DNA of 64,000 nt from a virus (Duplodnaviria > Heunggongvirae > Uroviricota > Caudoviricetes), in the IMG/VR virus record IMGVR_UViG_3300027777_000022; one strand, written 5' to 3'. The notes below the pieces were generated by a model. It saw nothing but the letters and a program-made list of their open reading frames with translations. It ran no database searches and had not been told where the DNA came from. Position numbers and translations under genes: made by a program. Each line of letters starts with the position of its first letter. Position 1 is the stretch's first letter. Shown piece after piece: positions 1,546 to 2,693 of the stretch.

Positions 1546-1875
1546 TTATTTACCAGGTGTTGCAAGCACAGTTACCGCATACTTTATAGCTATCCAAGTT
1601 GCAAACTTTTCGTCGGGCACATCAAACCACACACGTTCGGTAGTCTTAGCAGATACTGGCCACATGCGATTGTTTCGATCCAACCGACGTTTAGCACCTG
1701 ATTGTCCCTTCCATCCGCGAATACCAAATTCGCGATTGGCTTCGGCAATGATCTTGTACCAGACTTCAGTGCTGTCAATTTCTACCCAAATACGGTGCAT
1801 GGACAAGGACGTTACTTCAAGCGAATTGAGTGACTCGGACATGCTCAACGCAGAGATCCCAATTTCAACAGACAT
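1546..1875 (-). CDS. Hypothetical protein downstream of the structured RNA
   Basis: 109-aa ORF with an AAAGGA RBS, co-oriented with neighbours. Confidence 0.75.
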   Translation of the reverse strand: MSVEIGISALSMSESLNSLEVTSLSMHRIWVEIDSTEVWYKIIAEANREFGIRGWKGQSGAKRRLDRNNRMWPVSAKTTERVWFDVPDEKFATWIAIKYAVTVLATPGK

Positions 1876-1901
1876 TTACATATCCTTTCCAGATTATTCC
1901 T

Positions 1902-2064
1902 CTTGGCATACTCCCAGGGTACCAGCCTGGTTTTGATCTTTCGATCGAGGTCTTAGTCGCAACCTATAAGATTTATGCTCACTTGCCACGGCACCTGCAG
2001 GCCCGGGTTATCGATTCACCCTACAGACACCATTGAACAACTCCATCTCCTTGCCCATGCCAAG
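1902..2064 (-). ncRNA. Candidate structured non-coding RNA or leader (multi-helix junction)
   Basis: Intergenic. Closing stem CTTGGCATG/TATGCCAAG, a 14-bp GU-rich helix, a GAAA-tetraloop hairpin and two further hairpins; extended -10 TGtTATAAT directly upstream. Confidence 0.6.
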
Positions 2065-2078
2065 TAATTATAACAATT

Positions 2079-2488: not shown

Positions 2489-2693
2489 GATTTTCTCCTT
2501 TTAAAATCTGTATCATTCTATACTGTTCAAACAATTTTGTCAAGTCTACCCACTCGCCCGCACCGTTGGGCACTTCAAATGTTTCACCACTACACCAGGC
2601 TGCGGCGGCACGGTGATATAGAAGTTCTGCTGCATTTTCGTTGATCACTGGTGACAGATCCTGCACCATTTCTGTCCATAGATTTTGACTCAC
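2463..2693 (-). CDS. Hypothetical protein
   Basis: 76-aa ORF in a tightly packed minus-strand run. Confidence 0.6.
   Translation of the reverse strand: MSQNLWTEMVQDLSPVINENAAELLYHRAAAAWCSGETFEVPNGAGEWVDLTKLFEQYRMIQILKGENRGNSKNSN

Follow-up and report, generated by a model that had tools for sequence, protein, structure and literature searches.

The question raised by this locus is what fills the roughly 200 nt between an 87-aa ORF (end 2079) and a 109-aa ORF (start 1875), both on the minus strand of the window, by which we mean the whole 64,000-nt stretch of Caudoviricetes DNA analysed here. No credible ORF was found in this gap, and a first-pass annotation, made from the letters of the window alone, had drawn there a multi-helix RNA of ~160 nt (2075-1902, minus strand), to be understood either as a non-coding RNA or as a cis-regulatory leader. 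Judged by sequence comparison, the gap is a real, strongly conserved and undescribed folded phage RNA of about 185-190 nt on the minus strand. Its place and strand were thus drawn correctly, whereas its extent was not, as the RNA reaches the Shine-Dalgarno (SD) sequence at 1883-1888. The best-supported reading, in which we have moderate confidence, is a leader acting in cis to control the initiation of translation.

The RNA matches no described family. Searched with Rfam 15, the whole window gave no hit at the gathering score, positions 1800-2200 gave none at E<=10, and 17 diverse homologous loci gave none at E<=1; riboswitches, ribozymes, pRNA, ROOL, GOLLD, 6S and RNase P are among the Rfam 15 families left unmatched by it. 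ARAGORN found no tRNA or tmRNA gene in the window, which agrees with the earlier remark that hallmarks of these RNAs are lacking. Neither the RNA (blastn with the locus) nor the 109-aa protein (tblastn) was found in cultured phages, and full-text literature searches found no published description of the motif. UAGGUGAGGC and ACAGUG..AAAG are reminiscent of the M-box, but the Rfam ykoK model gave no match. With conservation and structure established as described below, the earlier view of an undescribed phage RNA holds.

A search with the 109-aa protein returned 19 viral contigs, and wherever a contig extended upstream of the gene, a similar RNA followed TTGACA-17-TATAAT. A stringent sequence pattern assembled from the invariant blocks of the RNA, run on viral and prokaryote contigs, matched 62 viral contigs and none of 185,579 prokaryote genomes, and wherever the flank was long enough a homologue of the protein lay 28-32 nt downstream. 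Eighty further viral loci were gathered via a protein pattern and scanned with a covariance model (R1), which matched directly upstream of the gene of the 109-aa homologue in 72 of them, bearing out the tight link between RNA and protein gene that had been suspected. Divergent versions of the RNA are legible by eye upstream of distant homologues (L157, L158, L159, L178, L182, L251, L259, L260 and L262); these nine loci are missed by R1 at E<=1 and were assigned by eye. A few other homologues (L180/L181, L254 and L255) have a promoter and a short leader without the structured RNA, and are natural 'minus-RNA' controls. The family counts at least 71 distinct RNA sequences, with a single copy in the 157-kb record containing the window, and within the reach of our searches it appears confined to uncultivated phages, including those of lake-water samples.

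The minimum free energy (MFE) fold of the window RNA (-54.1 kcal/mol) reproduces the drawing of the first-pass annotation. Against dinucleotide shuffles, the minus strand has a z-score of only -1.82, with 8 of 200 shuffles folding as well, so that energy alone is weak evidence and the comparative data are decisive; the plus strand (z = -0.66) folds no better than shuffles. In a model-based alignment of 71 distinct sequences, pairs were counted for a seven-helix structure. Over its 34 pairs, 95.4% of the cells were canonical versus 32-49% with the partners slid, changes on both sides occurred in 25 pairs versus 7-13, and the covariation score was 0.452 versus 0.03-0.09. None of 500 shuffles attained the observed value on any of the five measures. 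The earlier proposal had named covariation in relatives among its checks, and this check came out clearly in favour of a selected fold. The features of the resulting model are listed in Table 1.

Table 1. Features of the leader RNA and its surroundings, in window coordinates
Feature	Position	Strand	Evidence or remark
Extended -10, TGtTATAAT	2067..2075	minus	sequence
Folded leader RNA	about 2060 to 1876	minus	comparative alignment
5' single-stranded leader, GCAUG...RRGAGRU	2044..2060	minus	alignments
Long hairpin P2	1968..2043	minus	covariation
Pb	2040-2043 with 1968-1972, one bulged U	minus	3/4 pairs changed on both sides
P2a, UGUUC/GAGCA	2035-2039 / 1976-1980	minus	5/5 pairs changed on both sides
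P2b, AUGG/CCGU	2030-2033 / 1988-1991	minus	sequence
P2c, 10-bp stem rich in G-U	2020-2029 / 1992-2001	minus	7/8 pairs changed on both sides
P2 apical loop, 18 nt	2002..2019	minus	self-complementary hexamers
Hexamer AUCGAU	2010-2015	minus	self-complementary
Hexamer CCCGGG	2002-2007	minus	self-complementary
Pseudoknot 5' strand, GGCA	1984..1987	minus	3' side of P2 internal loop
Conserved unpaired junction, AGGNUGNGAC	1956..1965	minus	alignments
P6 5' strand, AGA-CCUC	1947..1953	minus	directly 5' of P4
P4 hairpin, GAUC-GAAA-GAUC	1935..1946	minus	loop mostly GNRA; covariation
Conserved junction, AAAAC	1930-1934	minus	precedes P5
P5 hairpin, CCAGG/CCUGG, loop CUGGUAC	1914..1930	minus	covariation
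Conserved GGAGUA, then pseudoknot 3' strand UGCC (1905-1908)	1905..1913	minus	covariation
Linker with P6 3' strands GAGG (1899-1902) and UCU (1891-1893)	1876..1904	minus	
SD, AAAGGA	1883-1888	minus	sequence
109-aa protein gene, first of operon	1546..1875	minus	ORF

The closed multi-way junction drawn for the window survives in part. Hairpins P2, P4 and P5 are strongly supported by covariation in the 71 sequences, whereas the closing helix P1 and helix P3 are not conserved. P2 is extended by Pb, in which GRGY, immediately 5' of P2a, is matched by R-(U)-CYY past a UAA bulge; the central pair of Pb is G-C in 44, A-U in 12 and U-A in 11 sequences, and divergent members have GGAGG/CCUCC or CUAGG/CCUAG. 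Pb occupies the UCUU that had been given to P3 (UCUUA/UAAGA), whose variable positions are paired in only 21-35 of the 71 sequences and which competes with two helices that do co-vary. P1 (CUUGGCAUG/UAUGCCAAG) can be drawn in the window, with five core pairs that show no covariation and with its GCAUG/UAUGC pairing broken at the A-U pair in 9 of the 71 sequences; it was dropped for a pseudoknot that uses the same 3' bases. P4 has 3 of 4 pairs changed on both sides, with stems such as GACCUG/CAGGUC, GAUCUG/CAGAUC, GACCUA/UAGGUC, GACCAA/UUGGUC, GAUUCA/UGAAUC and UUGGA/UCCAA, and P5 has 4 of 5 pairs changed on both sides with 99.4% of its cells paired. The junctions carry long invariant unpaired purine stretches (AGGNUGNGAC, AAAAC and GGAGUA), of which AGGNUGNGAC is nearly invariant in the 71 sequences and recognisable in divergent members. 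Invariant unpaired purine junctions are typical of RNAs with a tertiary pocket, and in the aligned sequences they argue, together with the pseudoknot, for a defined tertiary pocket.

Several other pairings were tried and rejected. A helix 'Pa' between the RRGA of the 5' leader and UCYY has A-C and G-A mismatches in whole groups, while Pb, slightly downstream, co-varies. A pseudoknot of the leader with the junction (GAGGU/ACCUC) is not conserved, and kissing of the P5 and P2 loops (AACAU/AUGUU) occurs in one subgroup only, P5 loops varying without changes in the partner. A leader peptide from the AUG in P2b was discarded as well, the AUG being lost in several groups and the 'ORF' varying like a stem. 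On the plus strand, a terminator-like call at 1914-1930 is the reverse complement of P5 plus the conserved UCAAAAC junction, and is probably not a terminator.

The 3' end of the RNA is tied up by two long-range elements. The GGCA/UGCC pseudoknot is 99.3% paired in the 71 sequences, G-C being replaced by A-U in five and A-U by U-A in five, and divergent members show a C-G, G-U or U-G pair. By joining the internal loop of P2 to the 3' end, it makes the domain a compact pseudoknotted one, and the long-range helix P6 closes a three-way junction, stacking on P4 and enclosing P4, P5 and the pseudoknot strand. In the window, the two 3' strands of P6 are separated by a 5-nt A-rich bulge (5-8 nt across groups). 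When the subgroup of the window was aligned with MAFFT, P6 proved to be 96.7% paired versus 31-50% when slid, with compensatory changes in 4 of 7 pairs. Complementarity of the 5' strand with its own linker amounts to 4.1 contiguous bp versus 3.2 bp with the linkers of other classes, a value attained by none of 5000 shuffles and, after collapse to 11 classes, by 1 of 5000. At least 10 complementary pairs of strands occur (CCUC/GAGG, CUUC/GAAG, CCAU/GUGG, CCUU/AAGG, UCCUA/UAGGA, UCUCA/UGAGA, CUCA/UGAG, UCCC/GGGG, UCUU/AAGA and ACUA/UAGU). The inner part changes in step (CACUG/CAGUG, and in divergent members CACCG/CGGUG and CAUCG/CGGUG), and other groups combine both parts, as in CACUG-UCCUU with AAGGA...CAGUG. 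P6 ends 0-5 nt upstream of the AAAGG(A) SD sequence; it stops just short of it, and the folded domain therefore occupies the whole leader.

The covariation model contains no conserved helix that pairs the SD itself, and no minus-strand terminator lies between RNA and ORF. Between pseudoknot and start codon there are 28-36 nt in almost every core member, and about 60 nt in three. Directly before the true AUG of the window stands a two-codon AUG-UAA (1876-1881, minus strand), which may act as a start-stop element or simply offer an alternative start; in one relative (L001) its stop is replaced and the ORF begins two codons earlier.

At the other end, the extended -10 that had been pointed out is present, and transcription is predicted from its position to start at G2060/G2061. 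At this position relatives have TTGACA-17-TATAAT, and 6 nt separate the end of their -10 box from an invariant GCAUG. The window lacks the TTGACA -35 box, though every relative inspected carries one, and is the only inspected instance without its own; a promoter scan found no full sigma-70 site at 2067-2075. The same scan gave a strong, near-consensus promoter (TTGACA-17-TAGAAT, 2515-2543, minus strand) before two small overlapping ORFs (2276-2488 and 2079-2342), and read-through from it could extend into the leader RNA. All of the core family has GCAUG unchanged, and the 5' segment that it opens includes an SD-like GGAG; no conserved pairing partner for this segment was found in the alignments. 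The two ANGGA motifs seen earlier in this 5' segment are not conserved, relatives carrying GGGAGGUGGG, AAAGAGAUUGGG or AGGAUAUU there, and the idea of a protein sponge, including one of the CsrA/RsmA type, finds no support.

The gene behind the leader belongs to a family of 73 cluster representatives at 50% identity. Its 109-aa product has no Pfam, PHROG or NCBIfam assignment, and Atlas searches returned viral hypothetical clusters only. The AF2 model (pLDDT 85.9) predicts a ferredoxin-like beta-alpha-beta fold with a basic helix, for which structure searches gave generic ferredoxin-like matches only (Z 7.1 or lower). Disorder is predicted for the 26 residues at its N-terminus, which many homologues lack. 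Over the first ~26 codons of 1546-1875 the nucleotide sequence (AUGUCUGUUGAAAUUG...CUCUGCGUUGAG) is unusually conserved, and to judge from this an RNA-level constraint may act inside the N-terminal codons.

The order RNA, ~105-aa protein, ~500-aa membrane protein, ClpX, small ORF, Hsp20 and ClpS was the same in 10 of 10 loci inspected, which span the main sequence groups. The ClpX assignment is an NCBIfam equivalog at 512 bits. Downstream of the low end of the window, a full ClpX, Hsp20 and ClpS adaptor in one operon can be read in a relative (L177, 4179-6517), and no ClpP was seen at that locus. The small protein is always followed by a ~520-aa protein (3-1565 on the minus strand of the window; L177 2602-4182) that has transmembrane helices at its N-terminus and a long region that is probably a coiled coil; it is found in viruses only and has weak DUF4407 and SMC-like matches without a family. 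A lake-water metatranscriptome contains a 303-nt contig that matches window 1719-2021 without a difference and crosses the border between RNA and ORF, which fits weakly with a single transcript of both, DNA carry-over being possible. Two runs contained small parts, of which this contig was the only usable one, and such contigs give no ends, strand or level. The earlier suggestion had been to look for a discrete ~160-nt RNA in such data; what was found joins the RNA to its ORF.

Between the two readings of the first-pass annotation, non-coding RNA and cis-regulatory leader, the second is favoured because of where the promoter lies, the lack of a terminator, the constant distance to the start codon, and a co-varying P6 that reaches the SD. 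The RNA, at about 185-190 nt, would then make up the entire 5' untranslated leader of an early phage operon, and formation of its fold would set ribosome loading on the first gene and hence on the operon. Here the alignment offered no co-varying alternative off/on structure; the sole candidate, competition of the 5' GCAUG and of GGCA for UAUGCC, is invariant or broken. We infer occlusion of the SD only from the proximity of P6, and the regulatory effect and its direction are likewise putative. An RNA thermometer of the ROSE or fourU type was rejected, as the SD is unpaired in the conserved model and the fold is complex and pseudoknotted with invariant junctions.

A bound effector may stabilise the fold, either a small molecule, which would make the leader a riboswitch, or the co-encoded basic protein, which would make it an autogenous operator. 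Several features of riboswitches are present, namely an aptamer-like covarying fold, invariant junction bases, a promoter upstream and an ORF downstream. As for an expression platform, P6 stops a few nt before the SD and excludes it, and there is no terminator. All examples of the RNA precede the same gene in syntenic phages, a linkage that cannot separate a riboswitch from a protein partner. Its exclusive association with one gene favours the protein as effector, whereas a ligand is favoured by how elaborate the RNA is and by the homologues that lack it. The operon content of ClpX, Hsp20 and ClpS points to no obvious metabolite.

One feature is unaccounted for by simple cis regulation. A perfect palindrome of at least 6 nt is present in 33 of 40 distinct P2 apical loops (82%), versus 19% of shuffled loops, a fraction reached by none of 2000 shuffles, and the loops often carry two. 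The first hexamer appears as AGAUCU, GAUCGAUC, UAGCUA, GUUCGAAC or GAGCUC and the second as CCUAGG, ACCGGU, AACCGGUU or UCCGGA, so that the groups differ yet stay palindromic. In the second hexamer the mirror positions co-vary (outer pair C-G 34 and A-U 23; central pair C-G 42, U-A 8 and U-G 8), with a covariation score of 0.406 versus 0.00-0.09 when slid, and CCUGGG, with a G-U pair, is intermediate between CCCGGG and CCUAGG. Neighbouring bases are unable to pair with each other within one molecule, so the pairing under selection seems to be one in trans, and this pattern suggests RNA-RNA kissing between copies of the loop; a DNA palindrome is a less likely source of the hexamers. Palindromes are absent in divergent members with a short P2 (L249, L238 and L247).

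The hexamers are the main ground for a second explanation, which we regard as possible, if tentative. The folded domain would itself be the functional product, possibly freed from the transcript's 5' end, and would act as a scaffold or decoy, forming dimers or larger assemblies through the P2-loop hexamers, possibly with the co-encoded small protein. The high share of palindromic loops, the co-varying mirror positions, which cannot pair in cis, and the tight linkage to one protein family all fit with it, and the G-U intermediates indicate that the pairing is at the RNA rather than the DNA level. But neither a terminator nor a recognisable processing site is present, P6 extends into the linker beside the SD as expected of a leader, there is one copy per genome, and the short-P2 members do without palindromes.

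A simpler role, as a 5' mRNA stabiliser or ribosome stand-by element that guards the early operon mRNA from 5'-end-dependent nucleases without any sensing, is in our assessment unlikely. It would suit an RNA that stands right at the 5' terminus of a transcript with a strong promoter, and the SD-like AAGGAGGUG/GGGAGGU that many members have 10-18 nt away from their predicted start. However, this motif is degenerate in whole subgroups (AAAGAGAU, AGGAUAU), about 20 nt at the 5' end are left single-stranded in the conserved model, and such a role has no need for a pseudoknot or some 30 invariant unpaired bases. Finally, a DNA-level element (for instance an operator or clustered enzyme sites) or a functionless chance fold, to which the likeness of the loop hexamers to type II restriction or methylase sites and the single-sequence z-score of only -1.82 might lead, is highly improbable and appears close to refuted by the covariation, given compensatory changes in 25 pairs with stems that vary while pairing is kept, many strand-specific G-U pairs and G-U intermediates, and a plus strand no better than shuffles.

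The putative translational leader can be compared with three kinds of known system. The SAM-II/SAM-V and preQ1-II classes exemplify translational riboswitches whose 3' tail forms a pseudoknot next to the SD. Like these, our RNA lies in a 5' UTR, has co-varying stems around invariant junctions and a 3'-tail pseudoknot, and ends in a helix at the ribosome-binding site. Unlike these, it is much larger (about 190 nt), has no Rfam riboswitch match, leaves its SD unpaired and occurs before a single gene family only. Among autogenous operators are the pseudoknotted leader of T4 gene 32 and the ribosomal-protein leaders of rpsO/S15 and of the S4 alpha operon. The RNA resembles them as a pseudoknotted leader directly upstream of, and co-inherited with, the gene of a small basic protein that might bind it, but it is far more elaborate, its protein is predicted to have a generic ferredoxin-like fold and matches no known RNA-binding family, and some protein homologues have no such leader. 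Self-associating phage RNAs include phi29 pRNA, with its intermolecular loop-loop pairs, and the ROOL and GOLLD assemblies. Our RNA shares with them a phage origin, early transcription and loops seemingly selected for intermolecular pairing, while it is much smaller than ROOL and GOLLD and matches neither in Rfam. A phi29-type pRNA was rejected in the absence of an Rfam match, with loops that are self-complementary rather than complementary in pairs, and with a position as an mRNA leader beside ClpX, Hsp20 and ClpS rather than packaging genes.

Large pseudoknotted RNAs with this degree of covariation and many invariant unpaired bases are usually riboswitches, ribozymes or the cores of RNPs. 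A more daring synthesis, which we consider doubtful, is a new phage riboregulator in which effector sensing together with kissing between leaders would gate the ClpX-Hsp20-ClpS operon, or in which the assembly would be an RNP with the ferredoxin-like protein. The leader heads a protein quality control operon, and to our knowledge the regulation of protein quality control in phages is essentially unknown. The structural model offers experimental handles in the pseudoknot, P6 and the palindromes. Should the effector be a metabolite or a stress signal, it would reveal what the phage monitors when deploying its own unfoldase, and if the loops mediate multimerisation, naturally self-assembling RNAs would be extended to mRNA leaders.
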